NCBI GenBank assembly: GCA_022842995.1 | Contig: JALHOM010000007.1 | Coordinates: forward strand, 78-64,077 | Origin: Candidatus Saccharimonadota bacterium | GTDB taxonomy: Bacteria; Patescibacteriota; Saccharimonadia; Saccharimonadales; 2-12-FULL-41-12 | Reading direction: 5' to 3' | Length of the DNA: 64,000 nt | In this document: positions 10,535-41,222 of the stretch, piece by piece | Layout: the number at the start of each line of letters is the position of its first letter | Numbering within the stretch: the first letter of the stretch is position 1 | Translations under genes and position numbers: made by a program | Notes under the pieces: generated by a model | Databases searched by the model: none | The model's input: only the letters and a program-made list of their open reading frames with translations | What the model was told of the DNA's origin: nothing

Positions 10535-10857
10535 GACGCTTGTATAGCGCCGAGGCGCATATAATCCGCAGTCTTTCTCGTAGCAATTCGCTGTACAGCG
10601 AACTTTGATTATCGTACTCCTTACGACAAATCCCTAGCGGGATTTCAACGCACTCTGAAGAGCGCGTTTATCGTCACGTGCTTTCAGCACTTGACGCTTG
10701 TATAGCGCCGCTGCGCATATAATCCGCGGTCTTTCTCGGAGCAAGCTCCTGCGAGAGCCTTTGATTATCGTATTAAATACGACAAATCCCTAGCGGGATT
10801 TCAACGCACTCTGAAGAGCGCGTTTATCGTCACGTGCTTTCAGCACTTGACGCTTGT
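10535..10857 (-). repeat. Tandem repeat (158 + 156 bp units plus a 9-bp partial unit) containing the smpB 3' end and hairpin modules
   Basis: The 80-bp block 10778-10857 (the last 22 smpB codons, the stop, and 12 nt beyond the stop) is repeated perfectly at 10622-10701. The unit junction GACGCTTGT occurs at 10535, 10693 and 10849. Confidence 0.9.
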
Positions 10858-11266
10858 CGTATTTTTTGAGGCCGACACCGGTGGCTATTCGAAGTTTGAT
10901 GTAGCGACCTTGGGTCAAAAGCTCGGTGGGAATAATTGATTTGCCTTGTTTTTTAGCCTCGATCAGCTGGTCTATCTCGCGTCTTTTTAAAAGCAGCTTC
11001 CGACTTCTGGTTTGCTCGGTTTCGTCTAGCTTGACCCCGTTAAATCCTGTAATTGTTGCGTTTAAAAGGAACAGTTCATTTCCTTTTTCGACCACGTAAG
11101 CGCCGCGTAGGTGGCCATGGCCAAGGCGCAAGGCTTTGGTTTCGGCTCCCGTCAGACTTATGCCCGCCACAAAACCATCGCCCAGGGCATAGTCGTGCCG
11201 AGCGCGCTTGTTGGTGATTTTTTTGGTCGTTGCTTGCTTCTTTTTAGCCATAACAGATGTATACAT
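10790..11266 (-). CDS. smpB: SsrA-binding protein
   Basis: 158 aa with NKRARHDYAL...GISLTGAETKALR...LRGAYV...RSRKLLLKRREIDQL...KGKSIIPT...LRIATGVGLKKYDKR. Confidence 0.95.
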   Translation of the reverse strand: MYTSVMAKKKQATTKKITNKRARHDYALGDGFVAGISLTGAETKALRLGHGHLRGAYVVEKGNELFLLNATITGFNGVKLDETEQTRSRKLLLKRREIDQLIEAKKQGKSIIPTELLTQGRYIKLRIATGVGLKKYDKRQVLKARDDKRALQSALKSR

Positions 11267-11318
11267 TGTCTAATAGATTACGGATATTTACAAAAAAGAC
11301 AAAAGAGAAAAGAGAAAA

Positions 11319-11500
11319 GGTTAAAGACAGCTGAGTCAAGAGTCATGAGTCATGAGTTAAGATTCGCCTGCGGCGAAAGGAGCTCGTAGCTAGTCGCTAG
11401 TATCTTGTAGCTATGAGCTACTCTTATCTCATATCTCTTAACTCATGACTCTAAAGCAAATATCACTATCGCAAATCATAGAATAAAACATAATCAGCGA
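11319..11500. repeat. Mosaic nested-palindrome intergenic element, copy 1
   Basis: The outer arm GAGTCATGAGTTAAGA pairs with TCTTAACTCATGACTC. These arms enclose hairpins TTCGCC-TGC-GGCGAA (11362-11376) and AGCTCGTAGCTA...TAGCTATGAGCT. The element is homologous to 38834-39221. Confidence 0.8.
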
Positions 11501-11550
11501 GTTTCTAGTTTCTAGTTTCTAGTTTCTAGTTTCTAGTTTCTAGTTTCTAG
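11501..11550. repeat. Heptamer tandem array (GTTTCTA) x7
   Basis: Seven perfect 7-bp units. The stop codon and last five codons of the glycosidase gene (…LETRN*) lie inside the array. Confidence 0.95.
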
Positions 11551-12693
11551 TTGTTTCTGGATTTCGCGTTTGCCGGTATCCCACAAACTTGGGTCGCCCG
11601 CTTTGACTTTGCGCCAGTACCACCACTCTACTCCCCAGACATCGATGGTCTTGATACCGGTGTTTACGCCGTATTCAATACGTTTCTCGAGTCTTTTGGC
11701 ATCGAGTGATTTATTCTGTTCTGGAATATGATCAGGATTATTCATCTTATAGCCTTCTGGGAGCCAAGCCTCAGTTTGGAGTTCGTGGATGATCATATCT
11801 TTGCCAGTGACTAGTTCACCGTATCCAGCAAGTGATGAATAGAACCAGCTTGGATAAGGGTATTCGAAGTAGCGTTTTGTAAGAGTTTTGTCCCAAACGC
11901 GTTTATAGACTGCCACGCCAAACTGATCAGGGGTCGGATCGCCGATTGGTACACCGCCCCAGTTATTGCTGCGGCTGATGGTGAGTTTGGTGTCTGGATC
12001 AATTCGTTTAACAAGCTCGTATTCCTCGACTAGACGTTCTCTGCTGAAGTCCGGGCACTCGCCAAATACGCTCATGAAGAACTCATTCTCAAGCTGGTAG
12101 CTTTCTAGTGCGGGGCTGTCTTTGTAGCGTTCCACGGTAGCTGCTATGAAGGCATAGAGATCATTTTTCCATTCGGCTATTGGCCTGCCTTTGGCCCATG
12201 CAGGCTCGTGGCACTCTGGCCAGCGTGGTTGCCTCAGGCCTATGGCAAGCGAAACTTCAACTCCAGCGGCTTCGGCTTTTCGGAACTGCCAATCAAGTTC
12301 GCTGAAGTCGTATGTACCTTTGGTTTTCTCGATATCTTTCCAGTAACTTACCAGCCGAAAGCGCTCAAATCCTATGTCATTGATCAAGGCGTCCATGGTT
12401 TCCTGGGGGTCAAGTCCAAAATAACGAGCGTAATTGGGTATAAACGTAGCCCCTATTTTGAGCTCTTCGTTTCGGTGTTTAACGGTGTAGTAGACGGATC
12501 CAAGATATGTAAAAAGTGTAATTAACCCAAAGCAAATTGCGAGCACGAGTGCTCCTTTTTGGACTACATTGAAGCGCTGAATGCGACTCTTGACTTTGGC
12601 CCACGTGCTGCCTGTTGATTTAGTGTATCTAGATTTTTGACTTCCCATTAAATCTCTAACCAAAAGCGGTTTACCTTTGCCATATGATAGCAC
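11533..12693 (-). CDS. Membrane-anchored glycoside hydrolase (TIM-barrel, clan GH-A-like)
   Basis: 386 aa with an N-terminal TM segment (ALVLAICFGLITLF) and the clan GH-A-like YQLENEFF (NE) motif, plus FRLVSYWKDIEKTKGTYDF. The start is uncertain: GTG at 12693 or ATG at 12648. Confidence 0.6.
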   Translation of the reverse strand: MLSYGKGKPLLVRDLMGSQKSRYTKSTGSTWAKVKSRIQRFNVVQKGALVLAICFGLITLFTYLGSVYYTVKHRNEELKIGATFIPNYARYFGLDPQETMDALINDIGFERFRLVSYWKDIEKTKGTYDFSELDWQFRKAEAAGVEVSLAIGLRQPRWPECHEPAWAKGRPIAEWKNDLYAFIAATVERYKDSPALESYQLENEFFMSVFGECPDFSRERLVEEYELVKRIDPDTKLTISRSNNWGGVPIGDPTPDQFGVAVYKRVWDKTLTKRYFEYPYPSWFYSSLAGYGELVTGKDMIIHELQTEAWLPEGYKMNNPDHIPEQNKSLDAKRLEKRIEYGVNTGIKTIDVWGVEWWYWRKVKAGDPSLWDTGKREIQKQLETRN

Positions 12694-12714
12694 TTTGCAA
12701 TAGACTTAGCTACA

Positions 12715-13746
12715 ATGACGTCTAAAATCGAGCCAAATAAATCAGAGTTATACACAACCGTTGCCTGGGACTATGACGATATGAGGGCTAGTATCCCGGC
12801 ATTTATTCATCGGGCAGTCGATGAATTTAATGAACTGGAATTCGAGGACTTGCTACAGAATGCGACTAAGCATCTACGTCACGATGCGCAGTCTGGTCTA
12901 GAGTATCTGCATTTAAATACCCGTTCGAGCTCGGAAGATGAAGTGGTGGTGCACTTTAACCCATTTATGCTCAGTTTTGACGCAAATATGCTACTTAGAG
13001 CACGGTTTTTAGCCTCTTGCATATCAGCCAGTGAGATACGTGATGATACTGGCAAACGGCTGAGTTTGATTGGCTTTGCGTCACCCAATGGCGACGGGAC
13101 GTTGAGACTAAGCCGTCGCGAACGGCGTACGTCGGCCAGGGGTGATTTTTCTTTGCTGGCACGTAACTATATCGGAGTTATTTCGCGACTTGGATACAAA
13201 AAACTCAGGATTGTTGGTTACTCGCAAGGGGCAACTATTGCAGCGGCGGTTGCTGCAGAGGCGCTTCGATCAGGGTTGGGCGTTAGCCACGTTGCTCTCG
13301 GCGAGCCGGCCAATGTCATGCGCCGGGGTCCGCTTAGACTTGGGCGGGACTTTTCGGCGGCAAATCGGTTACTCAATAAGGCTATAGACGACGGTGGGCT
13401 TGAGCACATGAAACGATTCCACTTTTCTTATCGCCCTGCACTCGGCCTTATCTGGGCCTTTCGTAAGTCGCCACGCAAAAACATCAGTGTTATTCGTGGA
13501 CTAGGTAAAGACGGACTCAAGAAGGATCTTCGTATTTTGGCATCCAGTCCTGCCTCATTAACTGTGTCTTATGGGTCTTTGAATCGGGTATGTCCCAAAA
13601 AGGTGATCGAAAAAATATTCTTATCAGCCAGGAGCGACCCGGAGGCGCATTCGCTTCATTCGGTGGAGATCAAGGGCGCACATCATGTCTGGGGCGATAG
13701 ACTAGATCTTTTGGCTTACTTTTATTACTACGCACTTACTCGCTAG
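12715..13746 (+). CDS. Alpha/beta hydrolase family protein
   Basis: 343 aa with nucleophile elbow IVGYSQGA and a C-terminal KGAHHVWGD (candidate catalytic His). Confidence 0.65.
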   Translation: MTSKIEPNKSELYTTVAWDYDDMRASIPAFIHRAVDEFNELEFEDLLQNATKHLRHDAQSGLEYLHLNTRSSSEDEVVVHFNPFMLSFDANMLLRARFLASCISASEIRDDTGKRLSLIGFASPNGDGTLRLSRRERRTSARGDFSLLARNYIGVISRLGYKKLRIVGYSQGATIAAAVAAEALRSGLGVSHVALGEPANVMRRGPLRLGRDFSAANRLLNKAIDDGGLEHMKRFHFSYRPALGLIWAFRKSPRKNISVIRGLGKDGLKKDLRILASSPASLTVSYGSLNRVCPKKVIEKIFLSARSDPEAHSLHSVEIKGAHHVWGDRLDLLAYFYYYALTR

Positions 13747-13786
13747 AGCCAACGGACCATGGTTGGCGTGATATATTGAGTGGTAT

Positions 13787-14608
13787 ATGGAACGCACTGC
13801 AGGCCCTACGCTGTCAATTGTGATACCGGTGTATAACGAGGCGCTCGATCTTGCCGCTTGTTTAGATACGATTGCTCAGCAAACATCCGCGCCAGATGAA
13901 GTTATCGTAGTTGACAACAATTCAACTGACGAGAGTATGGAAATTGCTTTGCGTTATCCATTTGTCAAGATTGTTGTAGCCAAAAAACAAGGTATTGTGC
14001 ACGCCAGAAATGCTGGGTTCGATGCCGCAAAAAGCGACATCATCGGCCGGATAGATGCGGACTCTCGCCTCAAGCCTGGTTGGGTTGAGTCGGTGAAGCG
14101 ATATTATCATAGCCAAGAACACATGAGTCGTGCAGTGAGTGGACGTGGCTATTACTATAATCTGAGGTGGCCGATGTTTGCGGGTATGCTCCAGCACGAC
14201 ATCGCTTTTGAATATAACCGTTTAATTTTGGGAGGCTATATTTTGTGGGGATCAAATATGGCTATTCCGCGTACTTTATGGCACGAGATTAAGCAGGAAG
14301 TTTGTCGACGTACCGATATTCATGAGGATATCGACCTGGCCATACATCTAAAGCATCGTGGATATTCGGTAGATTATCGCAAGAGCTTGATGGTGGGCGT
14401 AAAGATGCGACGCATACATACCGAAAGGACTCAGCTGTGGCCGAATCTTATGCTGTGGCCAAAAACCTTTAAGGCCCACGGTTTTCCTGCTTGGCCAATG
14501 GCAACATTCGGAGCGATTTTCCTGTACTTTTCGGCCATGCCTCTTCGGTGGTTCGAAAGGTTTACGATGGCGACAGCCGGTCGGCCTCGCCGCAGGCGTA
14601 ATATCTAA
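13787..14608 (+). CDS. Glycosyltransferase family 2
   Basis: 273 aa with LSIVIPVYNEA, VIVVDNNSTDES and RIDADS (DxD-like). Confidence 0.85.
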   Translation: MERTAGPTLSIVIPVYNEALDLAACLDTIAQQTSAPDEVIVVDNNSTDESMEIALRYPFVKIVVAKKQGIVHARNAGFDAAKSDIIGRIDADSRLKPGWVESVKRYYHSQEHMSRAVSGRGYYYNLRWPMFAGMLQHDIAFEYNRLILGGYILWGSNMAIPRTLWHEIKQEVCRRTDIHEDIDLAIHLKHRGYSVDYRKSLMVGVKMRRIHTERTQLWPNLMLWPKTFKAHGFPAWPMATFGAIFLYFSAMPLRWFERFTMATAGRPRRRRNI

Positions 14609-14691
14609 GGCGACCGTGTATGGGACCCTTGTTATCGGCTAAGATCTGGCCGTCGCACTGGATTATTTTCGTGGGTTGATATAATAGCCTG

Positions 14692-15921
14692 ATGCGCATC
14701 GGAATTTTCACTGATGATTATTATGCCCGAGAAAGTGGCATGATCACGTCTATTAATCTCCTTCGCCAAGGTCTCGTCGAGGCTGGTCACGAAGTGTATA
14801 TAATTGCCCCGCGACCAGATAAAAAACACCCGCTTCCGGCAGATGACCATGTTGTTTTGGTGAGGTCGTTTAGCGCTATTTTATTTAAGGGTATCCGCTC
14901 TGCTATCCCGACCAAAAAAGAGTACCGCAAAATAGTCGATCTCGAACTCGATATTGTGCATTCTATGACACAACATAACCTCGGTGTGCTGGCCTATAAA
15001 GTGGCCCAAGAATTGGACATACCCCACGTAACGACGTATCACACCATGTTTCCAGAGTTGGCGAGGTTCTACCCTCACAGAGTCGTGATTTTAACGTTCT
15101 TTACAAAGTTTCTTTATGGAAAATGGCTCGGTATTGGCAACCAGGTTGCTTGGCCAAAAATAAGCTGGCTGTATAAAGTCCCAGAATCCGATAAAAAGGA
15201 TTTTATGAGAGATGGATGGGAAATGATTGCTGCCTTTGGTGAAGTCTGTGACGGAATCGTCGTGCCCTCGAGGCATATGGGGAAAATACTACTGCCTCAC
15301 CAGGAATTTGAACGTCCTATGGCGGTAGTTCCGACGGGAATTGACAAGGACTTCTTTGATGGTGAGCGAACTCGATCGTTTCTTCGAAAAAAACAACTAG
15401 AAGTAGCAGTCATTGGCCGTGTCAGTGACGAAAAGAGAGTATCGACTATTATCGAAGCGCAAAACGATGTCGACAATGTGAGGCTACATATTGTTGGAGA
15501 TGGGCCGGAATTGCCAGTTTGTAAGACAAAAATTAAATATCTAGGCCTTGAGAGTAGAACGATTTTTTATGGCGCAAGAACCAGAAAATTTGTGAGAAAA
15601 ATTCTACTAAAGAGTGATATTTTGGTTTTAGCGTCGCTTGATTTTGATACCCAAGGCATGGTTTTGCTGGAAGCGGCAGCCGCGGGAACCCCCGTGGTTT
15701 ATTCTGACAAAAAGCTAGCCAAAAGTTGCGCGCCGAAGGGTTCGATTTGCGCCGGACCAACCAAAGATCATTTACGGCAAGTTTTCGAGCGATTGCTCTC
15801 AGGAGGCTATGATCTAGAAGCTATGTCAGTGTATTCCAAGGAATTTGCAGCGCTTAACACGTATCAGTTATTCGCCGCCAAAACGGTATCTTTCTACGAA
15901 AAACTACTCAAAAACAAATAA
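14692..15921 (+). CDS. Glycosyltransferase family 4 (glycolipid-synthase-like)
   Basis: 409 aa. The N-terminus MRIGIFTDDYYARESGMITSINLL...GHEVYIIAP and the GT-B C-terminal motif GMVLLEAAAAGTPVV are present. Confidence 0.8.
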   Translation: MRIGIFTDDYYARESGMITSINLLRQGLVEAGHEVYIIAPRPDKKHPLPADDHVVLVRSFSAILFKGIRSAIPTKKEYRKIVDLELDIVHSMTQHNLGVLAYKVAQELDIPHVTTYHTMFPELARFYPHRVVILTFFTKFLYGKWLGIGNQVAWPKISWLYKVPESDKKDFMRDGWEMIAAFGEVCDGIVVPSRHMGKILLPHQEFERPMAVVPTGIDKDFFDGERTRSFLRKKQLEVAVIGRVSDEKRVSTIIEAQNDVDNVRLHIVGDGPELPVCKTKIKYLGLESRTIFYGARTRKFVRKILLKSDILVLASLDFDTQGMVLLEAAAAGTPVVYSDKKLAKSCAPKGSICAGPTKDHLRQVFERLLSGGYDLEAMSVYSKEFAALNTYQLFAAKTVSFYEKLLKNK

Positions 15922-15950
15922 TCCCCATAAGAACTAGATTTTCCTCGCAT

Positions 15951-15998
15951 TTAACCCGGGTTAGCGAGAAATTTATCGTCGAAGTGATGCTTAACCAA
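15951..15998 (-). pseudogene. Displaced copy C of the cobO 3' end (reads LVKHHFDDKFLANPG*)
   Basis: My translation of the reverse complement. Across the shared codons it differs from the live cobO end only at synonymous positions. Confidence 0.7.
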
Positions 15999-16077
15999 GC
16001 CTCAAAAAAAGCAGGCTTTTCCGGGGACCCCGTAGCGAAAATCAAACGCCAAGATTTCACGGTCCATCTTGGCCTTA

Positions 16078-16134
16078 CTAGTAATCTATGCCTGGGTTGG
16101 CTAAAAACTTGTCATCAAAGTGGTGTTTGACCAT
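16078..16134 (-). pseudogene. Displaced copy B of the cobO 3' end (reads MVKHHFDDKFLANPGIDY*)
   Basis: My translation. It has 6 nt differences from the live end over 45 nt, all synonymous. Confidence 0.75.
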
Positions 16135-16212
16135 GCCCCAGAAAAACTAGTTTTCCCGGGGGCCCCGAATGAAAATTAAGCATCACGGTCTGACAAGGCT
16201 CGTACAGTCTTA

Positions 16213-16782
16213 CTAGTAATCTATGCCTGGGTTGGCAAGGAATTTATCATCAAAGTGATGCTTAATTTTGGTCATGTTGGTGGCGATGTCTACTTTTGGA
16301 AGAAGTTGTTCTGGAAAATCACGTCCAGTGAGGCATAGGCTGGTTTGTGGGTGTTTTTTGTCGATTAATTCTTCTAGTTTTGATACCTCTAGTAAACCGT
16401 CATGGACCGCGTTGTTGATCTCGTCGCATATAACCAACTGATACTCTCCGCTCGAGGCGGCTTTTAAGGCCTCTTGATATGTTTCTTCGGCTGCTTGTTT
16501 GTGTTGTTCCTCGCTGACGTTTGTTGCGCTCAAGTCGCCGGCAGAGTAAAACCCCTTGCCACCTTTATAAAAATAAAGCTGATCGCCATAAACTGGCTCG
16601 ATGTCGCGGATAAAGGCGTGCTCACCGACGCCCCAATATTTGATGAACTGTATAAAGGCGACGTTCCAGCGGGTGCCGAGGGCACGTGCTAAAAGCCCGA
16701 CAGAGGCGCTGGTTTTACCCTTCCCTTCACCGGTATAGACAACAACGACGCTGTCTTTGGTTTTGAAATCTTCGAAGGCCAT
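16213..16782 (-). CDS. cobO: ATP:cob(I)alamin (corrinoid) adenosyltransferase, CobA/CobO/BtuR family
   Basis: P-loop VVVYTGEGKGKTSASVGLLARALG, FIQFIK, and LVICDEINNAV. I use the ATG at 16782 (MAFEDFK...) rather than the track start at 16818. Confidence 0.8.
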   Translation of the reverse strand: MAFEDFKTKDSVVVVYTGEGKGKTSASVGLLARALGTRWNVAFIQFIKYWGVGEHAFIRDIEPVYGDQLYFYKGGKGFYSAGDLSATNVSEEQHKQAAEETYQEALKAASSGEYQLVICDEINNAVHDGLLEVSKLEELIDKKHPQTSLCLTGRDFPEQLLPKVDIATNMTKIKHHFDDKFLANPGIDY

Positions 16783-16794
16783 TACACTACAGTT

Positions 16795-16872
16795 TAAAGG
16801 TAAAAGAGTAAAGAGCAAAGTTTAAAGACCAAAGACCAAAGATTAAAGATTAAAGAGCAAGAGTAAAGCGTG
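16795..16872. repeat. Purine-rich word-repeat tract (AAAGAnn units) just upstream of the cobO start
   Basis: The tract reads taaaggtaaaagagtaaagagcaaagtttaaagaccaaagaccaaagattaaagattaaagagcaagagtaaagcg. The same word family appears at 38821-38850, 38985-39005 and 52075-52156. Confidence 0.7.
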
Positions 16873-16899
16873 AAGGGCTGGTTGGCTTAGGGGAAGAGT

Positions 16900-17433
16900 T
16901 TAGTTGTATATTGCTTTGGCTCGTCTTTCGGGCGAAAGTGCAACAGAAGTAGAAATATCATTTCGAGTTGCGTCGGGCGAGGCAGATTCTTCATTTAGTG
17001 CATCCATCCCCTTTGTCTTTTTATCCCACGCTATGATTGATTTTTGGATTTTTTCAAGTGAGTCCTGTATGGACTTTACGGCCCACCTGAACTCGAGTTG
17101 GAAGGGGGTTTCTGCCGTCGCTGTTATATATACGGCTAGTCCTGAAACAGCCGATAGAGTAGTTGCTTTTGGCTCATAAACATTTCCGTTGTCTGCCTCA
17201 TGTATAAACAGACTAAACGAAGGAATCATCAGTGCACCAGACATAAGGGTGTGTCTGACGTCTTGTGCTTGGGATGATCTTCCTAGGCGATATTCTAGGT
17301 CGGGATTGAGGTGTGGAAGGTTTTGATAAAGCCCGTCGCGCTCGCCGGGATTATCTGTTGGCGCGACATACGCTCGTTGGTCGATGTAGCGTAGAAATTC
17401 AGCAGTTTTGCGTGGCGGTAATTGAGAGATCAT
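16900..17433 (-). CDS. Hypothetical protein
   Basis: 177 aa. A strong RBS AAGGAGG lies 6-7 nt upstream of the ATG. No motif recognised. Confidence 0.6.
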   Translation of the reverse strand: MISQLPPRKTAEFLRYIDQRAYVAPTDNPGERDGLYQNLPHLNPDLEYRLGRSSQAQDVRHTLMSGALMIPSFSLFIHEADNGNVYEPKATTLSAVSGLAVYITATAETPFQLEFRWAVKSIQDSLEKIQKSIIAWDKKTKGMDALNEESASPDATRNDISTSVALSPERRAKAIYN

Positions 17434-17460
17434 GACTGGCCTCCTTTTTAACTAGATCAA

Positions 17461-17949: not shown

Positions 17950-17960
17950 GGCTTTATAGG

Positions 17961-26090: not shown

Positions 26091-26253
26091 ACACTGACCG
26101 AAGGCCATTCATTTTCCCTCGCCGAGGAATTTCCTATTGCCTTATTGCAACACGCTAGCTTGCCTGTATATGCTAGATTCTTTGAAGCGATATTTTCTAG
26201 TTTTCAAAACAACAAAATACATAGAAAATCAAAATCATGAATTAATCCTGAAT

Positions 26254-26294
26254 TTACCCAATTTTATATGCCGATCGTCACAAAAATAGGGTAA
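26254..26294. promoter_or_regulatory. Imperfect 41-bp palindrome centred on CGATCG, copy 1 (upstream of PaaX-like gene)
   Basis: Sequence: ttacccaattttatatgccgatcgtcacaaaaatagggtaa. It shares GAATTTACCCAATTTT...CGATCGTCACAA...TAGGGTAAA with copy 2. Confidence 0.7.
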
Positions 26295-26304
26295 AATTAC
26301 CGTT

Positions 26305-26790
26305 GTGAAAGAGGTGAGAAACAAGTACAAATCGGTGACGCATTATTTACTTATGTCCCTGATTCCCTACACTCATCCGAATGTTGCACTCACCTTCCGG
26401 CCGAATCGATTTTTGAGTGATATTATTAATATTCATATCTATCGTGAGCGAACAATCAGGAATGCATACTATAGTTGCGTTCGGGAGGGACTGGTAGTGT
26501 TCGATGGTTACAACGGTCAGCCCGTGATAACCGAGAAGGGTCTGCGACTCATACATCCTTTTTGTCCAAAGGAGTTGAAGGGTTCAAAATTAATGATTGT
26601 TTTTGACATTCCCGAGGCAGAGAGATGGAAGAGGAATCAACTCAGGGTTGTTCTTCGGCAATTGAAATTTGTGCAAGTCCAAAAAAGCGTGTGGATTACT
26701 GACTATGATGTTCGTGAATATATCGAGCAGGAAGTTAAGCGACTTAAGTTGAGTAACTATATAAAAATGTTCCAAGCATTATCGATTTGA
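26305..26790 (+). CDS. PaaX-like regulator (N-terminal wHTH-like plus Cas2-like ferredoxin-fold C-domain)
   Basis: 161 aa. The block LMIVFDIPEAERWKRNQLRVVLRQLKFVQVQKSVWITDYD matches the W/R-x-V-x-FDIPE...R..LR..L...GF..LQ.SVW pattern of PaaX-C-type proteins common in CPR genomes. Confidence 0.65.
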   Translation: MKEVRNKYKSVTHYLLMSLIPYTHPNVALTFRPNRFLSDIINIHIYRERTIRNAYYSCVREGLVVFDGYNGQPVITEKGLRLIHPFCPKELKGSKLMIVFDIPEAERWKRNQLRVVLRQLKFVQVQKSVWITDYDVREYIEQEVKRLKLSNYIKMFQALSI

Positions 26791-26792
26791 AT

Positions 26793-26833
26793 TTACCCAA
26801 TTTTTTATGACGATCGTCACAATTTTAGGGTAA
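26793..26833. promoter_or_regulatory. Imperfect 41-bp palindrome centred on CGATCG, copy 2 (immediately downstream of PaaX-like gene)
   Basis: Sequence: ttacccaattttttatgacgatcgtcacaattttagggtaa. Confidence 0.7.
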
Positions 26834-26886
26834 ATTGGTGGTGTGACAATTCGAGTGTCTCCCGGGGCTTTTGGTTGATCGCAGGG

Positions 26887-34291: not shown

Positions 34292-34398
34292 GACTGGTAC
34301 GTCCCTCTCTCGTCTGATTTTTTAACGCAAAATTTACTAGCATTATGACACGGATGCACCGATTCTGAGAATACGCTTTTGGTATACTATGCTTACAG

Positions 34399-35376
34399 AT
34401 GTGGAACAGAAAACAGCGCCCAGTGCGCTACTACAACGCTTACGCTCCCGAAAAGTCTCGACCGGTAACTTTACGACATCTGAGACCTGCTAATCATGCA
34501 TCAATCAATAAGCCATCTTCTGTTAAAAAATTTAGTCTCATCGCTGTAATATTATTGATGCTCGGCGTAGTGGGGACAGTTCTATTCAAGGTCTATTTTT
34601 CTCCAGATACGCCACAAAGTAACTCGGATGCTAAGGTTGAAGTAGTGCCAAAAAAAGAATATAAGCCGATTAACGAGACCCAGCTCCAGACTGATGTTGC
34701 CTCGGTCATTGCAGAAAACTCGAGTCTGGACATTGGGGTGTCAATTATCGACATACGGACTAACAAGCAATATACCTACGGTGTCGATGTTCCATATATT
34801 GCAGCCAGTGTCGGGAAGATATTGTCGGCTTGTTTGCTTCTTCATGAAGTCGAATCAGGTAAATACACACTAGAACAGCAAATTGGAAACGAATCTGCGC
34901 GCGTCCAGATCCAAAAGATGATAAGTAAAAGCGATAACGAATCCTGGCGTGCAATTAATAATGATTTGGGCCGTCCGGCCCTGCAGGCGTATGCGGCTAG
35001 TGTTGGTGTCCAGAACTATGACGCCGATAAAAATACGGTCACTCCTAGTAGCGTCGCCTCTTTATTGAATAAGCTGTATGCGCATCAGCTGCTGAATCAT
35101 GACAATACCTCTTTTTTGCTGGCCAATATGCAGACTGACCTAGAAGAGATTCAGTTTATTCGTAAATATATTGATCCGATGACGTCGGTTTATCACAAAG
35201 CAGGCTGGCTTGATGATCGGGCTCACGACACCGCGATTGTTGAAAATGGAGATAGGCCGTATGTCCTTGTTGTGTTTAGCAAGAAACGATTCGGTGACTA
35301 TGATTTTTCTGTAGGTCAAAAGATTTTTGAAGAGTTAACCACTAGAACCAACGGAATTTTTGTGGCGGCTTTATAG
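34399..35376 (+). CDS. Class A beta-lactamase-like serine hydrolase, membrane-anchored
   Basis: 325 aa with all three class A motifs: SxxK (AASVGKIL), SDN (SKSDNESW), and a KTG-like HKAGW. Confidence 0.75.
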   Translation: MWNRKQRPVRYYNAYAPEKSRPVTLRHLRPANHASINKPSSVKKFSLIAVILLMLGVVGTVLFKVYFSPDTPQSNSDAKVEVVPKKEYKPINETQLQTDVASVIAENSSLDIGVSIIDIRTNKQYTYGVDVPYIAASVGKILSACLLLHEVESGKYTLEQQIGNESARVQIQKMISKSDNESWRAINNDLGRPALQAYAASVGVQNYDADKNTVTPSSVASLLNKLYAHQLLNHDNTSFLLANMQTDLEEIQFIRKYIDPMTSVYHKAGWLDDRAHDTAIVENGDRPYVLVVFSKKRFGDYDFSVGQKIFEELTTRTNGIFVAAL

Positions 35377-35472
35377 GTCAAAAATGAAGTAAAACTTTCA
35401 TTAAATTGATATAATCATTAGAGGATTATGCAGTCTTTAATGTGAGACGGTGGAGTCACGTAGGCATATTTT

Positions 35473-37377
35473 GTGAAAAACAATAACGATTTCGACGGCA
35501 ACATTGAGAATGGCTCATCTGGTGAGCTGATTATTGATCATGGTAACAAGTCAAAAGGGAAAAGTGCTAGTAAGTCCGCCTCTGGCTCAACAAAGTCATT
35601 GCAAGTATCGCCATCGCCTCCGAAAGAAAAAACGAGGTCCCCAGTTGAAGAAATCCCTGCATTGATCTATGAAAAGCCTGGAGTTGCCAAGAAGGACCCG
35701 CCACAAGATAGCCCTTCCCAGCCAATTGCATCTGAGGCAAGGAATCCGTCTTTTGAGGATGGTGACGACCAACGGCTACAAACTCCGCCTAATCGCCCGG
35801 TCAACCGTCAAGTTTATTCAGACGACGAGCCTCCTTTGAAAGATATTTTTGATCCATCGCCTAATAATATTGTCGCTGACGATCAAGCATTGGTCCCGGG
35901 TGGGTTTATGAGTGGCGTTCCCAACCCGCAGGCCTTCTTTAAAAGCCGCTACCGTTCACACCCCCAGTCTTCTGTGAGCACTAGTCAAGCCAACGGTCCG
36001 ATTGCTCAGCCCGTAGCCCAAAAGGCTCAGATACTTGCCGGTGCTTCTCCTCAAAGTTTTGCGCCAATTCCACCTCGACGAGGATTATTTAAGTCTCGGT
36101 TGCCTTTTCGGATAAATTTCATAAGTTTAGTTGCTGCTACATCAGTGGCTGGCTTATTGATTATTGTTCTCGTCGTTGCGGGCAATAGACCTGAGCGCGT
36201 CTATGGCAATGGCATGACCCGCACAGGCAAGGCTTTGGATAAGTTGCATGAAGAAATTTTTGCTGCTGAAGGCGGCGCGCGTCTTGTGAATTCAGCGCTT
36301 AGTGGGTCAATTACGACGAAGTATCCCGGTGAAGAAACGGTATCGACTTTTGAAGGCTCGTTGTCGGAGGGGCTGGTCACGATCAATGGCGAAGGTTCTG
36401 TTGTGCAAGCCGGCCAGCAAAAAGCCATTAATTATAGCCTGAGGACGAGTAATGGCTCAACTCCATTAACTCCTGAAATATTTATTAACATTGGACCGAC
36501 AGCAACTCAGTCGGCTGAATTTGTGGCTCCGGGCATTAGTACTCGTCCAAATACATGGATCGCGAGCGACGAAGCCACTACGAAGGCAGTTATAGATAGG
36601 TTCTCGGGTACGCTAAGTGGATTATTCCCGCAGGGAGTGTTGGGCGCAGAAAGAGTAGAGCCAAATTATCAAACATTCAGGTCGGACGCAGTTTACGGCG
36701 GCACCAAAGCGATTATAGAAAGTCTCAGAAAATTTGTATTTACTGCAAAAGACGAAGGAATATTAGAGTACCGCGAATTCGTTGGTCAAGAAAACGATGA
36801 GGATCTCGCCCTCAATCATTACTCGACCGCTGTAAATAAAGTAGCCTATAAAGACTTTTGTGTTGACATGAAGCAACGACTAGGATCCGAGCAATTGATG
36901 ATCGCAAGTTTGGTTGGCGTTACTCCTGCTTCTCTCGACGACGCATCAAGTTGCGATAGTGCAGCTGACGCCATAACTGATGACACTGTTATCGATATTT
37001 GGATTGATACTGAGCAAAAAGTTCTTCAGAAGATGAGAGTATATTATTCTCCGGACCTTACGTCTTATAGAGAGTTTGGTCAAGTCACAAAAGTCGATAA
37101 ATCAGTGGAATTTTATTTCACCGATAAAGATACTGCGAATGGTCTGGATGCGAGAGCAACATTGTGGTATGAGTTCAACACATCAAAACTAGGCGTAGGC
37201 TATACCCAAAGTCTTCAAGAGGCTGACAGCTTCAAAGAAATCTCTCTGAAGTTGGACTTTATGCCAGGTGAAAATGCAAGTTTAGATAATTCAAAGCCTA
37301 TCGAAACAGTGCCACTAAATCAATTCCTGAATGCACAGGGTAAGACCCCGGCTGATCTCTTAAGGCACAAGAGATAG
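35473..37377 (+). CDS. Large surface protein: Pro/Ser-rich N-terminus, single TM, extracellular domain (paralogue of 47645..49570)
   Basis: 634 aa with TM segment LVAATSVAGLLIIVLVVAG. The post-TM block NRPERVYGNGMTRTGKALDKL resembles NKPENVWSTSLDRSGKALEKV in the 47645 protein. Confidence 0.65.
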   Translation: MKNNNDFDGNIENGSSGELIIDHGNKSKGKSASKSASGSTKSLQVSPSPPKEKTRSPVEEIPALIYEKPGVAKKDPPQDSPSQPIASEARNPSFEDGDDQRLQTPPNRPVNRQVYSDDEPPLKDIFDPSPNNIVADDQALVPGGFMSGVPNPQAFFKSRYRSHPQSSVSTSQANGPIAQPVAQKAQILAGASPQSFAPIPPRRGLFKSRLPFRINFISLVAATSVAGLLIIVLVVAGNRPERVYGNGMTRTGKALDKLHEEIFAAEGGARLVNSALSGSITTKYPGEETVSTFEGSLSEGLVTINGEGSVVQAGQQKAINYSLRTSNGSTPLTPEIFINIGPTATQSAEFVAPGISTRPNTWIASDEATTKAVIDRFSGTLSGLFPQGVLGAERVEPNYQTFRSDAVYGGTKAIIESLRKFVFTAKDEGILEYREFVGQENDEDLALNHYSTAVNKVAYKDFCVDMKQRLGSEQLMIASLVGVTPASLDDASSCDSAADAITDDTVIDIWIDTEQKVLQKMRVYYSPDLTSYREFGQVTKVDKSVEFYFTDKDTANGLDARATLWYEFNTSKLGVGYTQSLQEADSFKEISLKLDFMPGENASLDNSKPIETVPLNQFLNAQGKTPADLLRHKR

Positions 37378-37398
37378 AACTTAAAGCCTTATATCTTG

Positions 37399-37427
37399 TT
37401 GACTTAAGCATTATCAAGTGATATTAT
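37399..37427 (+). promoter_or_regulatory. Putative sigma70-type promoter TTGACT-17-TATTAT with ~170-nt leader for the DEAD-box helicase gene
   Basis: TTGACT at 37399-37404, a 17-nt spacer, and TATTAT at 37422-37427. Confidence 0.4.
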
Positions 37428-37601
37428 ATAGGCAATTGTTATTGATGAATCATTTTAAGAATGTTCGTTAACGTGCGTAGGTTTTTAATTTCATTGGCAA
37501 CAATTTCGCTCTTAATAGGTATATCAGCATAGATTGCCGTGAGCGTAGCCCATGTGAATGGCCTATATCACAACTAAACATTTTTAAAGGATTCATTTTT
37601 T

Positions 37602-38813
37602 ATGCCTCAAAATTTTAAAAAAACCTATCATGCTCGACCAAAACCGAGTGGTAACTTCCGTTCAAACAGTCGTCGCAAACCAATGCGTCGTAGTAAAGCA
37701 ACTATCGATCCTCGTCGTTACGTTAAAGCCGCGGTTCCGGTAGAAGAAACTACATTTACTCCTCAGCATACGTTTGCCGACTTCCCTATCAGCCAGGTTC
37801 TTATAGATAATATCTCGAACCAAGGATTTATTTCCCCTACTCCCGTTCAAGACGAGGCAATTCCGGTTGCTTTGACCGGAGTTGACGTTCTTGGCCTTGC
37901 CGATACCGGTACTGGTAAGACGGCTGCTTTTGGCATTCCTCTCCTTGATAAGCTGATCAAAGACCGCCAAGCCAGAGCATTGATTTTGGCGCCAACTCGT
38001 GAACTAGCGCAACAGATCGAAACCGAACTTCGTTGGATGGCTAAAGGCAGTGGCCTGCGGACAGTTCTTTTGATCGGTGGCTCTTCAATGGGGCTACAGC
38101 TACGCTACTTGCAGAATAATCCACGGATTATCATCGGAACACCAGGACGAGTAAAAGATCATATCGATCGTAAGACACTCAGAATCGAACAATGTAATGT
38201 TGTCGTACTCGACGAAGTAGACCGTATGCTTGATATGGGCTTTGTGAATGACATCTCTACTATTCTCGGCATGGCTGCAACACCACGCCAGTCACTGTTT
38301 TTCTCGGCAACGATGGACAAACGAGTTCGTGATCTTATAGATGGCTTTACGAAGGATCCGGTTACTGTTTCTGTACGTACTGGAGATACTTCTCAGAACG
38401 TTGAGCAAGACGTCGTTGCGTATCAGACTAATGATGATCGTATGGAACAGCTACATGACCTATTGATCTCGACTCAAGTTGAAAAAGCGCTTGTTTTTGA
38501 TGAAACCCAACGAAGTGTCGAGCGACTGAGTAACGAACTGATCGCTCGTGGCTTCAAAGCAGATGCGATTCACGGCGGGAAAAGCCAAGGTCAGCGAACG
38601 CGTGCTCTTGGTAAGTTTAAAAACAACCAAGTGAACATATTAGTCGCTACCGATGTTGCCGCGAGAGGAATTGATATCAAAGATATTTCTCACGTGATCA
38701 ACTTTTCTGAACCCCAAGTTTACGATGACTACGTACACCGTATTGGTCGCGCCGGTCGTGCGGGACGAAAAGGTTTTGCATATACTTTTGTGAAGCTTCC
38801 GGCTCGAAATTAG
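37602..38813 (+). CDS. DEAD-box ATP-dependent RNA helicase
   Basis: 403 aa with a Q-motif region, motif I ADTGTGKT, motif II VLDEVDRM, motif III SAT, and motif VI HRIGRAGRAG. Confidence 0.93.
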   Translation: MPQNFKKTYHARPKPSGNFRSNSRRKPMRRSKATIDPRRYVKAAVPVEETTFTPQHTFADFPISQVLIDNISNQGFISPTPVQDEAIPVALTGVDVLGLADTGTGKTAAFGIPLLDKLIKDRQARALILAPTRELAQQIETELRWMAKGSGLRTVLLIGGSSMGLQLRYLQNNPRIIIGTPGRVKDHIDRKTLRIEQCNVVVLDEVDRMLDMGFVNDISTILGMAATPRQSLFFSATMDKRVRDLIDGFTKDPVTVSVRTGDTSQNVEQDVVAYQTNDDRMEQLHDLLISTQVEKALVFDETQRSVERLSNELIARGFKADAIHGGKSQGQRTRALGKFKNNQVNILVATDVAARGIDIKDISHVINFSEPQVYDDYVHRIGRAGRAGRKGFAYTFVKLPARN

Positions 38814-38833
38814 AGCCAAGTCTAAAGATAAAA

Positions 38834-39335
38834 GCTTAAAGATAGCTGAGTCAAGAGTCAAGATTCGCCTGCGGCGAGGGGGGGTGGGAGCTCGTAGCTA
38901 GTCGCTTGTACCTAGTAGCTAGGAGCTACTCTTATCTCATGACTCTAGGTCAGAAATTAGAAAATAGAAATTGGTAATCAGAGTAAAGTCTAAAGACTTA
39001 TGAAAGAAGAGTCATGAGTCAAGAGTTTTGAGTTAAGATTCGCCTGCGGCGAGGGGGGTGGGAGCTCGTAGCTAGTCGCTTGTACCTAGTAGCTAGGAGC
39101 TACTCTTGTCTCTTGACTCATACCTCTTAATTCTAATTTAGGAATTAGAAATTCGAAATTTGAAATTGGCATTAACCCAAAAATCGCTATTGCCAACCAC
39201 AACCGAATAAAACATACTCAGCTAGTTTCTAGTTTCTAGTTTCTAGTTTCTAGTTTCTAGTTTCTATTCTAATTCTTGACTCATGACTCATATCTCATAT
39301 CTCATAACTTATATCTCATAACTCATGACTCAAGG
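38834..39335. repeat. Mosaic nested-palindrome intergenic elements, two tandem copies plus trailing word-repeat arm
   Basis: Copy a spans 38834-38950 and copy b 39008-39221. Each contains AAGATTCGCCTGCGGCGA(G)n TGGGAGCTCGTAGCTAGTCGCTTGTACCTAGTAGCTAGGAGCTAC flanked by GAGTCA(A/T)GAGT words and their complements. The poly-G run is G7 in copy a and G6 in copy b. Both copies are homologous to 11319-11500. Confidence 0.85.
39222..39266. repeat. Heptamer tandem array (TAGTTTC) x6
   Basis: Same unit as the 11501-11550 array. It is preceded by the same conserved ~45-nt segment (GAATAAAACATA(A/C)TCAGC). Confidence 0.9.
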
Positions 39336-39347
39336 CTGAAAGCTATT

Positions 39348-40064
39348 CTATATGTGGACGTCGAAGAGTGTGCCGATGCCGTATGTAATGAGCATTGCTA
39401 TGGCTCCTCCGATAACGACTCTCATAGTTGCTTTGCGACGACTGGCTTGGCCGAGTGTAGCGCTGATGTAGCCGGTAAGTATCAAGGCTAGAATCACCGA
39501 AACAAAGGCTACGGGGACGCGTAGGTCTTCTGGTGGAAGTAAGATTGCCGTGAGAGGCAGAACAGCCCCCAGTGTAAACGAAACGCCGGAAGCAATGGCC
39601 GCGTGAGTCGGATTGGTTAGTTCGTCTTGATTAATACCAATCTCGGCGTCTAGGTGGGCTTTGATGGCGTCGTGATCGGTAAGCTCTTGAGCGACTTTTT
39701 TGGCTGTTGGCTTTGAAAGCCCTTTTGATTCATAGATTGCAGCCAATTCTTTGAGCTCTTTGTCGGGGTTTTCTTTGAGCTCGATAATCTCGCGGTTAAT
39801 TAATGATTTTTCGGCATCTTTTTGGCTGCTAACGGATACATATTCCCCGGCAGCCATCGACAACGCTCCAGCTACTAGTCCGGCAATTCCGGCAGTTAAA
39901 ATGGTTGCTTTGTTGGTGGTGGCACCGGCAACCCCTACGACCAATCCAGCTATGGAAACAATACCGTCGTTAGCGCCTAAGACGGCCGCTCGAATCCAGT
40001 TTAATTTGGTGTTTGTGGCAGCCGAATCATGGAATTCATGGTGGTCGTTGTTTGTTTTCGTCAT
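39348..40064 (-). CDS. VIT1/CCC1-family iron/manganese transporter
   Basis: 238 aa with LGANDGIVSIAGLVVG, the central ferritin-like helical segment, and C-terminal TM helices. Confidence 0.85.
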   Translation of the reverse strand: MTKTNNDHHEFHDSAATNTKLNWIRAAVLGANDGIVSIAGLVVGVAGATTNKATILTAGIAGLVAGALSMAAGEYVSVSSQKDAEKSLINREIIELKENPDKELKELAAIYESKGLSKPTAKKVAQELTDHDAIKAHLDAEIGINQDELTNPTHAAIASGVSFTLGAVLPLTAILLPPEDLRVPVAFVSVILALILTGYISATLGQASRRKATMRVVIGGAIAMLITYGIGTLFDVHI

Positions 40065-40072
40065 GCCGGGGA

Positions 40073-40663
40073 TTAGCCTCGTTCTCTTTCTAGGGCGCCA
40101 ATCATCATGAGTAGTAGAACGGTCAAAGATTGCTCTTTTTCGTCCATCTTGTTTAAGGTAATGTTCTCTATGGTGTAGTAGCCTTCAAAAACAGCCGGAC
40201 GCTTGACGAAGTTCGCAATGATAGTGCCATCAGGAGAAAAAATATCATATTTCGGGTTGATAAAGTACCCGAATACTAAACCCAAGATAGGGATTTCGCC
40301 CAGAATTGCATCGAGAAATTTAACCCACGGGTTATGCTCCTTCAGCGTCCCTATAAGTTTGTCGCCGACATTCAACTCGTATGTAGCATTGAAGAGGGAT
40401 TTTGCACCATTTCGCTTGGTGCTGGCGAGAGCATTACCCGATGGATCGTAGATAGTGTAGGTCGGTGACCAGTCGATAATTTTATCAGCTTTAATTTTAT
40501 AAAGCTCGGTTGATTTGCTCCGGTCGCTAAAGACGATGACTTCTTCTTTTAGTTTGAGCAGTTTTTGGCGAACATAAGCAATATCTTGCCCTGCCCCGTC
40601 AATAACCCGCATTTCATTGGTTAAGGTAATCTTTTTGAAACGTAGCTGGATGGGATAATTCAT
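40073..40663 (-). CDS. Hypothetical protein, tentatively LURP-one-related/DUF567-like
   Basis: 196 aa. The pattern ...VIDGAGQDIAYVRQKLLKLKEEVIVFSD...YKIKADKIIDWSPTYTIYDPSGN resembles tubby-C-like LOR family repeats. This assignment is from memory only. Confidence 0.4.
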   Translation of the reverse strand: MNYPIQLRFKKITLTNEMRVIDGAGQDIAYVRQKLLKLKEEVIVFSDRSKSTELYKIKADKIIDWSPTYTIYDPSGNALASTKRNGAKSLFNATYELNVGDKLIGTLKEHNPWVKFLDAILGEIPILGLVFGYFINPKYDIFSPDGTIIANFVKRPAVFEGYYTIENITLNKMDEKEQSLTVLLLMMIGALERERG

Positions 40664-40748
40664 CCTTATATCTTACCTTACTCGGAAGTTTTAGCCGACT
40701 TTTATAAAAGTTCCTTCCCTGTTATAATGTCAAAGTTCTGTAAAATAA

Positions 40749-40822
40749 TGGGAATTGGCCAAGTGGTAAGGCAACGGGTTCTGGTCCCGTGATCGGGGGT
40801 TCGAATCCCTCATTCCCAGCCA
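40749..40822 (+). tRNA. tRNA-Gln (anticodon CTG), CCA encoded
   Basis: TGGGAAT TG GCC AAGTGGTAA GGC A ACGGG TTCTGGT CCCGT GATC GGGGG TTCGAAT CCCTC ATTCCCA G CCA. The acceptor stem TGGGAAT/ATTCCCA pairs fully. The overall sequence is very similar to canonical bacterial tRNA-Gln. Confidence 0.9.
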
Positions 40823-41222
40823 CGAAAATACCGGGCTTCAATGTCCGGTTTTTTCGTGGCTCAGGGTATTCGAACACCCGATCACGATCGGGGTGAAAAC
40901 AGCCTGTGGCTGTTTGCAAGGCAGTCAACTCTTGCGAACTGGTTTCGCAAAGATGTTGCTGCGGGCCGGCGGAACGTCGGTCGAATCCCTCATTCCCAGC
41001 CACGAAAATACCGGGCTTCAATGTCCGGTTTTTTCGTGCCCGAAGGGATCCGAACGCTCGATCACGATCGGGGTGAAAACAGCCTGTGGCTGTTTGCAAG
41101 GCAGTCAACTCTTGCGAACTGGTTTCGCAAAGATGTTGCTGCGGGCCGGCGGAACGTCGGTCGAATCCCTCATCCCTAGCCAGGTTTTGAATTTTAAAGG
41201 GCGAATCCCTCATCCCTAGCCA
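40801..41222 (+). repeat. Tandem array: two exact-period 180-bp units, each starting with the last 22 nt of tRNA-Gln, plus two further variant 3'-end copies
   Basis: TCGAATCCCTCATTCCCAGCCA occurs at 40801 and 40981. The variant TCGAATCCCTCATCCCTAGCCA occurs at 41161 and GAATCCCTCATCCCTAGCCA at 41203. The two 180-bp units are identical except for a patch of clustered mismatches at 40859-40880 versus 41039-41060. Confidence 0.95.
40823..40858 (+). terminator. Rho-independent terminator after tRNA-Gln
   Basis: Stem ACCGGGC/GTCCGGT with loop TTCAAT, followed by T6 (40849-40854). An outer CGAAAA/TTTTCG pairing is also possible. Confidence 0.65.

Follow-up and report, generated by a model that had tools for sequence, protein, structure and literature searches.

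Why should unrelated genes of one bacterium each be followed by copies of their own 3' end? The question arises from a 64,000-nt stretch of a Candidatus Saccharimonadota bacterium (GenBank assembly GCA_022842995.1, contig JALHOM010000007.1), hereafter called the window, on which an earlier note had reported that smpB, cobO and a tRNA-Gln gene are each trailed by tandem copies of their own 3' end and that the spacers of the three loci have no sequence in common. Both statements were borne out, the arrays lying where they had been placed and the spacer comparisons revealing no common sequence; the count of three loci was right for these three but missed a fourth, decayed case behind tRNA-Asn. 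At all four loci a core or tail is repeated while smpB, cobO, tRNA-Gln and tRNA-Asn stay intact. We consider it moderately probable that the arrays go back to site-specific integration at the 3' ends of genes, the inserted elements having been cut down to gene-less units that were then locally amplified.

The arrays behind smpB, cobO and tRNA-Gln

The smpB gene lies on the reverse strand, and its true start is likely the ATG at 11251, which would give a protein of 153 aa. Tandem Repeats Finder (TRF) reported the segment 10534-10857 with a period of 156, 2.1 copies and 89% matches. A 9-nt core, CAAGCGTCA, occurs three times on the reverse strand with its first bases at 10856, 10700 and 10542, and delimits units of 156 and 158 nt, each consisting of a 66-nt tail coding KRQVLKARDDKRALQSALKSR and the stop codon, followed by a spacer of about 90 nt. 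The features are:

10790..11266, reverse strand: smpB, from the list of open reading frames (ORFs); homologues carry Pfam PF01668 SmpB; the last 66 nt belong to unit 1
10701..10856, reverse strand: smpB unit 1 (156 nt), with core CAAGCGTCA, functional tail KRQVLKARDDKRALQSALKSR with stop, and a 90-nt hairpin spacer ending GCGCTATA; RNA fold z = -4.3
10543..10700, reverse strand: smpB unit 2 (158 nt), tail as in unit 1, palindrome TTCGCTGTACAGCGAA in place of one spacer hairpin
10476..10542, reverse strand: displaced smpB tail of another type, KRQAIKQRNVNREVNLGLRSI with stop, adjoining the promoter region of a CAP-domain gene

As judged from sequence, the displaced tail is most likely the original smpB end. 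The flank tattgctt...tataat that follows it also stands 3' of smpB in L001, a 446-kb JGI contig that is the closest relative available and is syntenic with the window (SmpB 94% and CobO 90% identical at the protein level, nucleotide identity 71-79%), and in L002, which has no array. Both tail types serve as functional tails in other Saccharimonadales. The labels of the SmpB and CobO homologues agree with an assignment of the window to the Saccharimonadales (TM7).

The units have a history separate from that of the genes that they follow. Between the window and L001 the smpB tail is 95.7% identical at the nucleotide level versus 78.9% for the gene body; the corresponding values are 87.0% versus 66.7% between L012 and L058, and 71% versus 54.6% between the window and L012, whereas the displaced tails differ strongly between L012 and L058, two related hosts. 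A conserved proximal tail and spacer together with a distal original flank would fit insertion at the core by units with their own history. Members of the unit family, whose spacers measure 90-146 nt, were detected in the window, L001, L012, L058 and L100/L101; they are recognised by the right end GCYATA followed by CAARCG, by one hairpin that spans the stop codon and another of the form GTCGTA...TACGA, and by the motif ATATATGC. Units with the same boundaries thus recur in four or five Saccharimonadales lineages; the family is present at about 5 of 22 Saccharimonadales smpB loci and absent at the other 17 or so. Among the matches listed in a metagenome scan with SmpB were at least three Saccharibacteria loci, the L001 contig not being one of those listed, and no exact match to the SmpB protein of the window is on record. 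Base pairing is kept where the sequence differs: AAATACGACAA pairs with TTGTCGTATTT in the smpB stem and is represented in L012 by TATGAC/GTCATA, and the hairpin over the stop codon has either CCC/GGG or CTC/GAG.

The two-unit array is common to the window and L001. The substitutions that separate these two genomes are common to units 1 and 2 within each of them; therefore, the units were duplicated or homogenised after the lineages had split. Unequal crossover, which the earlier note had offered as one candidate process, thus has a place, but as a secondary step only.

Two further observations were made at this locus. Right after the displaced smpB tail of L012 (about 1000-8759) the DNA is markedly GC-rich and has other ORF content, and it could be horizontally acquired or belong to a chimeric contig. 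The perfect palindrome TTCGCTGTACAGCGAA of smpB unit 2 (10587-10602) recurs at 51319-51334 and 52042-52057 (chance expectation 0.04), both times inside 33-nt repeats that flank an F420-oxidoreductase-like ORF (51381-52025), and may be a small dispersed terminator-like or REP-like (repetitive extragenic palindrome) element.

The copies behind cobO are too diverged for TRF, but a repeat search detected two families, D5 and D8, with a spacing of 135-136. The gene itself likely starts at the ATG at 16782, giving 189 aa, the length of its homologues. Its C-terminal sequence, (I/V)KHHFDDKFLANPG(IDY) with stop, occurs three times (16213-16266, 16078-16131 and 15951-15995) with spacers of 81-82 nt:

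16213..16818, reverse strand: cobO, ATP:corrinoid adenosyltransferase (Pfam PF02572, E = 1.3e-46)
16132..16266, reverse strand: cobO unit 1, functional tail c1 (16213-16266) and spacer sp1 (16132-16212)
15996..16131, reverse strand: cobO unit 2, displaced tail c2 (16078-16131) and spacer sp2 (15996-16077), long-range stem decayed
15951..15995, reverse strand: c3, a third allele, cut short after ...ANPG

Pairwise, c1, c2 and c3 differ at 8-12 sites; of these, 7-11 fall on third codon positions, and no more than one amino acid is affected (P = 0.008 to 5e-5). The comparison of c2 with c3 is the clearest, 11 of the 12 differences being at third positions and none changing an amino acid (P = 5e-5). 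Since the differences are almost only synonymous and the C-terminus is kept in 120 of the 120 CobO homologues retrieved, each copy evolved as a working gene end; going by this substitution pattern, the copies are three alleles and not drifted duplicates. The segment c2 plus sp2 is 86.9% identical to the functional tail and spacer of L001, where the surrounding genome is 71-77% identical. A 28-nt block is identical in c1 and c2. The spacer module was found at 3 of 13 cobO loci, namely in the window, L001 and L089. In unit 1 it takes part in a perfect 15-bp long-range stem (16255-16269 with 16172-16186), in which AAAATTAAGCATCAC pairs with GTGATGCTTAATTTT; in L001 and L089 the stem is formed by AAAATCAAACACCAC and GTGGTGTTTGATTTT, with three substitutions relative to the window, each compensated on the opposite arm.

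Intergenic repeats with a 7-nt period lie at 11290-11552 (upstream of smpB), 16796-16868 (at the cobO start) and 38818-39332 (between a DEAD-box helicase gene and a VIT1 gene). They comprise AGTTTCT, repeated 7.6 times at two places, and GAGTCAA, ACTCATA and AAAGNNN series; the blocks 11303-11382 and 38818-39058 are related, each containing GATTCGCCTGCGGCGA.

At the tRNA-Gln locus, TRF reported 40801-41182 with a period of 180 and 95% matches, plus a 40-nt repeat at 41162-41238. The 22-nt segment from the T loop to CCA occurs four times, beginning at 40801, 40981, 41161 and 41201 (chance expectation 0.00); two copies have the sequence of the gene and are 180 nt apart, and two, spaced by 40 nt, belong to another allele, CATCCCTAGCCA. 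The array described previously, with its 180-nt period, is thus present but really has four copies of two allele types, and the duplicated 3' end really amounts to about 42 nt, split by an 87-nt insert:

40749..40822, forward strand: intact tRNA-Gln(CTG) (ARAGORN; Rfam tRNA model, 62.3 bits)
40801..40980, forward strand: tRNA-Gln unit 1 (180 nt), starting with the 22-nt 3' end of the gene; fold z = -6.9
about 40823-40858, forward strand: terminator hairpin of unit 1
about 40856-40872, forward strand: imperfect inverted copy of the 3' end in unit 1
between the inverted copy and the 87-nt insert, forward strand: tRNA fragment CCCGATCACGATCGGGG of unit 1
40894-40980, forward strand: 87-nt three-hairpin insert of unit 1
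40981..41160, forward strand: tRNA-Gln unit 2, 96% identical to unit 1, with a second 87-nt insert at 41074-41160
41161..41222, forward strand: two more tRNA-Gln 3' ends, allele CATCCCTAGCCA, 40 nt apart

In each unit the fragment CCCGATCACGATCGGGG is followed by the 87-nt insert exactly at the expected position of the T loop, and TCGAATCCCT pairs with AGGGTATTCGA around the terminator. The differences between units 1 and 2 cluster in the patch of the inverted copy. Allele CATCCCTAGCCA fits an acceptor TAGGGAT and not the TGGGAAT of the gene; a related type, TAGGGGT, is found in L092.

The units of the window measure 135, 136, 156, 158 and 180 nt, and that of tRNA-Asn, described below, about 153-165 nt. 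Only spurious ORFs overlap them, and genes for recombination, transfer or cargo are absent from them. Each unit folds into a large hairpin, the 5' arm of which is situated at the boundary of the duplication, and the RNA fold z-scores across units range from -3 to -7.

The arrays of the two protein-coding genes also stood out in a 3'-end scan, in which the last 16 codons of each ORF of at least 90 aa were scored against the 450 nt downstream, with the opposite strand as the control. In the window cobO scored 94 and smpB 75, the next ORF 23, and the opposite-strand control at most 25. When 55 fetched loci were scanned in the same way, the only Saccharibacteria genes flagged were smpB of L001 and of L012, and in other phyla one borderline match was obtained in 955 ORFs.

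Displaced 3' ends of tRNA genes and recombinases beside tRNA genes

The fourth locus of the window was identified by ARAGORN and by alignment with the units of L005 and of L103, a locus of assembly GCA_041600715.1:

5402..5644, reverse strand: tRNA-Asn locus as a whole
5570-5644, reverse strand: tRNA-Asn gene
5417-5569, reverse strand: micro-unit, about 153 nt long, that includes a terminator hairpin
5402-5416, reverse strand: decayed displaced tRNA-Asn 3' end GCGCTGTCCGGCCTC, a 15-nt exact match to the distal junction of L103

Because the DNA behind this tRNA-Asn is homologous to the L103 and L005 micro-unit, the window holds a fourth, decayed case. The arrangement in L103 is tRNA-Asn, a 7.7-kb island with Resolvase and Zn_ribbon_recom ORFs, a degenerate GAGCCA, the micro-unit and a displaced end, CTGTCCGGCCTCCCGAGCCA. 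Judging by their domains, the two ORFs resemble a large serine recombinase that has been divided between them. The micro-unit has homology with the L005 insert, 41 nt matching at 95%, and also with the stretch that follows the tRNA-Asn of the window, where 15 nt match exactly across the junction. Stacking of a unit with a recombinase-bearing element was thus observed in the tRNA-Asn unit family only, in L103 and not in the window itself. A second recombinase was found in a viral contig, L098, in which a Phage_integrase ORF (E = 2.8e-39) lies 128 nt from a partial tRNA-Gln. This partial gene has 32 nt identical to the 3' part of the L093 tRNA-Gln, and its flanks are unrelated to the units of the window; a search of viral contigs for relatives of the integrase returned L098 itself only.

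We also took 16 tRNA genes from Saccharimonadales loci and searched downstream of each for its last 20 nt, with upstream and opposite-strand controls. For five genes (tRNA-Gln of the window and of L093, tRNA-Leu of L014, and tRNA-Asn of L005 and of L001) a copy of the 3' end was detected 95-167 nt downstream with 16-20 of 20 matches, compared with at most 13 of 20 in the controls. The earlier note had judged three cases in 64 kb unusual, which holds against the control loci but less so within the clade, where displaced 3' ends follow 5 of the 16 tRNA genes sampled. The identity blocks run to the 3' end and start in the T loop in the window tRNA-Gln (22 nt), L005 tRNA-Asn, L014 tRNA-Leu and L093 tRNA-Gln; that of L001 tRNA-Asn is 43 nt long and starts in the anticodon loop. 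Starts in the T loop and the anticodon loop are said to be the classical integrase sublocations described by Williams in 2002. After the distal tRNA-Asn copy, homologous DNA follows in L001 and L005. In L057 a 360-nt insert, which contains a 95-aa ORF, separates the tRNA-Asn from a partial CCGGAGCCA. A regenerated target together with a displaced fragment is what marks an island (Islander, PMC4383910).

Several observations were made around the tRNA-Asn genes. The second tRNA-Asn copy of L001 (16325-16439) keeps the 5' strand of the acceptor and the 43 nt from anticodon loop to CCA, and has a 16-bp hairpin, TCCGCCTTTCGCCGGA...TCCGCCGAAAGGCGGA, in place of the D-arm region; a small GIY-YIG ORF (15973-16224) lies just upstream of the intact gene. 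In the window, a defence-type block on the reverse strand (281-5320) lies directly beyond the tRNA-Asn micro-unit, and the same place in L001 has no such block. It contains type I restriction-modification genes HsdM and HsdS, a RhuM/Fic protein and an AAA_21 (AbiEii-like) ATPase, and may be the cargo of an element integrated at tRNA-Asn with its far end beyond the window.

The 87-nt insert of the tRNA-Gln units was found at the following places:

window 40894-40980 and 41074-41160, forward strand: one insert in each tRNA-Gln unit
L091 1-247 and L092 1-121, both reverse strand: inserts of the same type
L093 about 2620-2704, reverse strand: further copy
L014 about 10766-10852, reverse strand: further copy, in a displaced tRNA-Leu fragment

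It is laid out as TGAGAAA, hairpin A, GCAAGG, hairpin B, CGGG and hairpin C, and its orientation is always that of the tRNA. Five pairs of hairpin A have compensatory changes, and five copies fold alike. In L091, a contig of the same species (the neighbouring protein is 99% identical), three inserts of this type occupy the D, anticodon and T loops of the orthologous tRNA-Gln. Rfam at the gathering threshold detected two tRNAs only in the whole window, and a permissive Rfam search of the tRNA-Gln array, L091 and L092 gave nothing credible and no match for the insert. We rejected the idea that the inserts are spliced introns, as their removal leaves non-canonical D, anticodon and T loops, two nucleotides short per site. 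Since canonical loops are not restored, the insert may be a tRNA-targeting miniature element instead. In the three fully visible cases the insert-bearing copy adjoins an intact gene; thus the insert probably marks dead tRNA copies. At L093 (2325-2760, reverse strand) the 5' part of a first tRNA-Gln, with the 87-nt insert and a truncated 3' end, is followed by a promoter-like TATAAT and an intact tRNA-Gln, behind which come a terminator, hairpins over about 150 nt and TCGAAAATCCCTCATCCCAAGCA, a displaced 3' end in decay, so that a dead copy stands upstream of a live one. The distant YxjI-neighbour loci, L093-L096, lack synteny for tRNA-Gln, L093 being the one that by chance has such a gene.

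Away from these loci, a 47-nt hairpin-containing direct repeat, 89% identical between 26249-26295 and 26788-26834, flanks an ORF (26305-26790) that matches the central Cas2-like domain of PaaX (E = 4.6e-17).

Origin of the arrays

The sequence of events that we propose would be as follows. An integrating element would bring its own copy of the target 3' end, and recombination at a short core would join the 3' end and the terminator-bearing flank of the element to the body of the host gene, pushing the earlier 3' end downstream. Repeated events would stack alleles, the oldest lying farthest from the gene. The units of 135-180 nt would then be elements reduced to, or perhaps travelling as, little beyond the flanks of their attachment sites. 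The direct repeats would finally allow unequal crossover or gene conversion, by which units are duplicated and homogenised; under this proposal the near-identity of the smpB units and of the tRNA-Gln units is due to these processes.

The proposal builds on what is demonstrated at the loci: the architecture, the allelic copies, the separate history of the units, their recurrence at the same boundaries and the stacking in L103. Of the process suggested previously, namely 3'-end-targeted integration followed by deletion, it is the integration that we favour, because of the alleles, the conserved distal flanks, the tRNA-loop boundaries, the L103 island and the partial tRNA-Gln next to the L098 integrase; internal deletion as the origin of the units, and the action of a recombinase at the smpB and cobO junctions, are what we infer.

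A number of results weigh against residues of integration. No recombinase, transposase or reverse transcriptase was detected among the approximately 60 ORFs of the window compared with Pfam, and no recombinase for smpB or cobO sites was found in the scans of the window or of viral contigs. Viral contigs gave 0 matches to unit k-mers, to degenerate smpB and cobO tail patterns and to the 87-nt insert, a blastn search of GenBank phages with the smpB and tRNA-Gln units gave no match, and our searches found no full-length element, phage or plasmid carrying an smpB or cobO tail or unit sequence. The tRNA-side end of the L103 island is not homologous to the micro-unit, so that no parent-remnant relation is demonstrated there. 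L001 and L089 have one cobO spacer module and no displaced cobO tail. As the distal tRNA-Gln copies misfit the present acceptor stem, the notion that the distal copy is the original end of the gene fails at that locus. Constraint on the hairpins, rather than recent transfer, could be part of the reason why the units are more conserved. Finally, the inserts (at least ten) are all at most 190 nt long, apart from the one of 360 nt, and this narrow range counts against the proposal because independent random decay should leave a wider one.

Since the units are uniformly small and more highly conserved, it is possible that they move as such. They might themselves be the transmissible form, miniature integrative elements that are not autonomous and amount to an attachment-site equivalent of MITEs (miniature inverted-repeat transposable elements), which we regard as a tentative idea and rather doubtful. 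Each unit would then bring a new end for the gene, together with a terminator and a stretch complementary to the point at which that unit inserts, and would spread among Saccharimonadales by a recombinase supplied in trans or by natural transformation, overwriting the 3' ends of conserved genes repeatedly. The unit hairpins may serve recombinase binding, have a role at the transcript 3' end or reflect the mode of unit origin.

The explanation that competes best with site-specific integration does without a recombinase. The gene end and its terminator would have been tandemly duplicated once, by slippage or unequal crossover at the large hairpin, which was tolerated because the first copy stayed intact; later, homologous recombination with DNA of related strains would have mixed the alleles, and deletions would have returned downstream copies to the functional position. 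Saccharibacteria are naturally competent, the window lacks a recombinase, and the spacers resemble native 3' flanks, a single cobO spacer without an array being present in L001 and L089. The large hairpin of each unit, with its 5' arm at the boundary, is of a kind that promotes slippage, and the concerted evolution of the smpB units and the identical block in c1 and c2 also agree with local events. This explanation does not account, however, for boundaries in the T loop or anticodon loop in five tRNA genes of three identities, nor for the same smpB boundary where the genes are only 55-60% identical in nucleotides. It leaves equally unexplained why the proximal tail and spacer are conserved while the distal tails differ, as in L012 versus L058, and why a recombinase-bearing island is stacked on the L103 micro-unit; moreover, had the copies been without function for most of their existence, one would not expect 11 of 12 differences to lie at third codon positions. 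We therefore hold it to be unlikely.

The units might instead be functional 3' modules under selection, that is, mRNA-stabilising or terminating structures or alternative 3' ends, with the duplication as a by-product. The cobO stem argues for this, being perfect in the window and in L001 and L089 despite the three compensated substitutions and decayed in the displaced copy, as do the pairing kept in the hairpin over the smpB stop codon and the fold z-scores. But a module that only 3 of 13 cobO loci and about 5 of 22 smpB loci possess is dispensable, a trailer complementary to the T arm would hinder tRNA folding, and the stacked alleles and displaced tails are left unexplained. As a full account we find it improbable; it is no true alternative either, since a function is compatible with integration as an added property of the incoming flank.

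That the arrays are an assembly artefact, in which strain variants of one locus were chained in tandem, is very improbable: although the window SmpB is not on record elsewhere, so that the arrays were not re-observed in an independent assembly of the same strain, and although the 1-kb contig L091 of the same species breaks inside the tRNA-Gln region, the same architecture is found in independent JGI, ENA, NCBI/GTDB and Logan assemblies (L001, L005, L012, L014, L058, L093, L100/L101 and L103), the unit junctions are fixed and in frame, and the two-unit smpB array is present both in the window and in L001, whose sequences are only 71-79% identical.

Other candidates were rejected. A simple in-place tandem duplication is ruled out by the synonymous cobO alleles, the foreign distal smpB tail and the misfit tRNA-Gln copies, and a pattern of neutral local duplication is seen only in units 1 and 2 of smpB and units 1 and 2 of tRNA-Gln. 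A diversity-generating retroelement does not agree with differences that are synonymous, involve all base types and are not confined to adenines, or with a window without reverse transcriptase. The starts of the cobO units resemble the GTTRRRY of integron attC sites, but the inverted repeat pairs with the start of its own unit, which is the wrong order. No gene of the IS200/IS605 type or the IS110/bridge-RNA type was found, and such elements do not duplicate a target of 50-66 nt. The resemblance of the ATATGCGC motif to dif/Xer sites is no more than weak.

Comparison with known systems and meaning for the Saccharimonadales

The closest likeness to the units is with the microCIMEs (CIME, cis-mobilizable element) of Streptococcus salivarius, which are gene-less, 130-220 bp long and flanked by attachment sites, and which occupy the 3' ends of rpmG, rpsI, fda and rplL; tandem pairs occur at times, and decay is greatest in the elements most distant from the target gene (PMC7563491). 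The units share with them the gene-less size class, the attachment-type repeats, the location at 3' ends of conserved genes or tRNA genes, the tandem pairs, the greatest decay farthest from the target and, in L103, the stacking with a recombinase-bearing element. They differ in being mostly stand-alone, without an adjoining ICE (integrative and conjugative element), IME (integrative and mobilizable element) or prophage, in having no parent element found and no evident link to conjugation, in their uniformly small size, in being more conserved than the host genes, with long-range stems that have compensated substitutions, and in their host, a bacterium of the candidate phyla radiation (CPR; Saccharimonadales). 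To our knowledge, smpB and cobO have not been reported as sites of microCIMEs or CIMEs.

With the islands and prophages that tyrosine integrases insert at tRNA and tmRNA genes, of the kind collected in Islander, the arrays have in common the regenerated target and the displaced 3' fragment in direct orientation, the identity blocks from the T loop (about 20 nt) or the anticodon loop (43 nt, L001 tRNA-Asn) to CCA, and an integrase beside a partial tRNA gene in the viral contig L098. The inserts here, however, are 95-360 nt and not kilobases long and lack an integrase, protein-coding targets show the same pattern, and the L103 recombinase is of the serine type, in two ORFs. The head-to-tail units, the roughly 2.1 copies, the short junction repeat and the concerted evolution of the smpB and tRNA-Gln units recall duplications by unequal crossover or slippage; but the outer copies are other alleles with nearly only synonymous differences or belong to another tail family, and thus a single in-place duplication cannot produce the arrays.

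What is new here is the host clade and the target genes, the kind of remnant being already known from streptococci. In practice the arrays would account for broken contigs and for ORFs spuriously called at these loci. The ultra-small genomes of CPR bacteria are usually described as poor in mobile DNA. If integration at 3' ends is the right explanation, these genomes would carry a dense record of it, trimmed to about 150 nt and touching smpB, cobO and 5 of the 16 tRNA genes sampled. Essential genes would be able to receive functional 3' ends from other lineages, the C-terminal tail of SmpB among them, and the scars would be usable as markers of past phage and element traffic and of attachment-site specificities in these little-cultured organisms.

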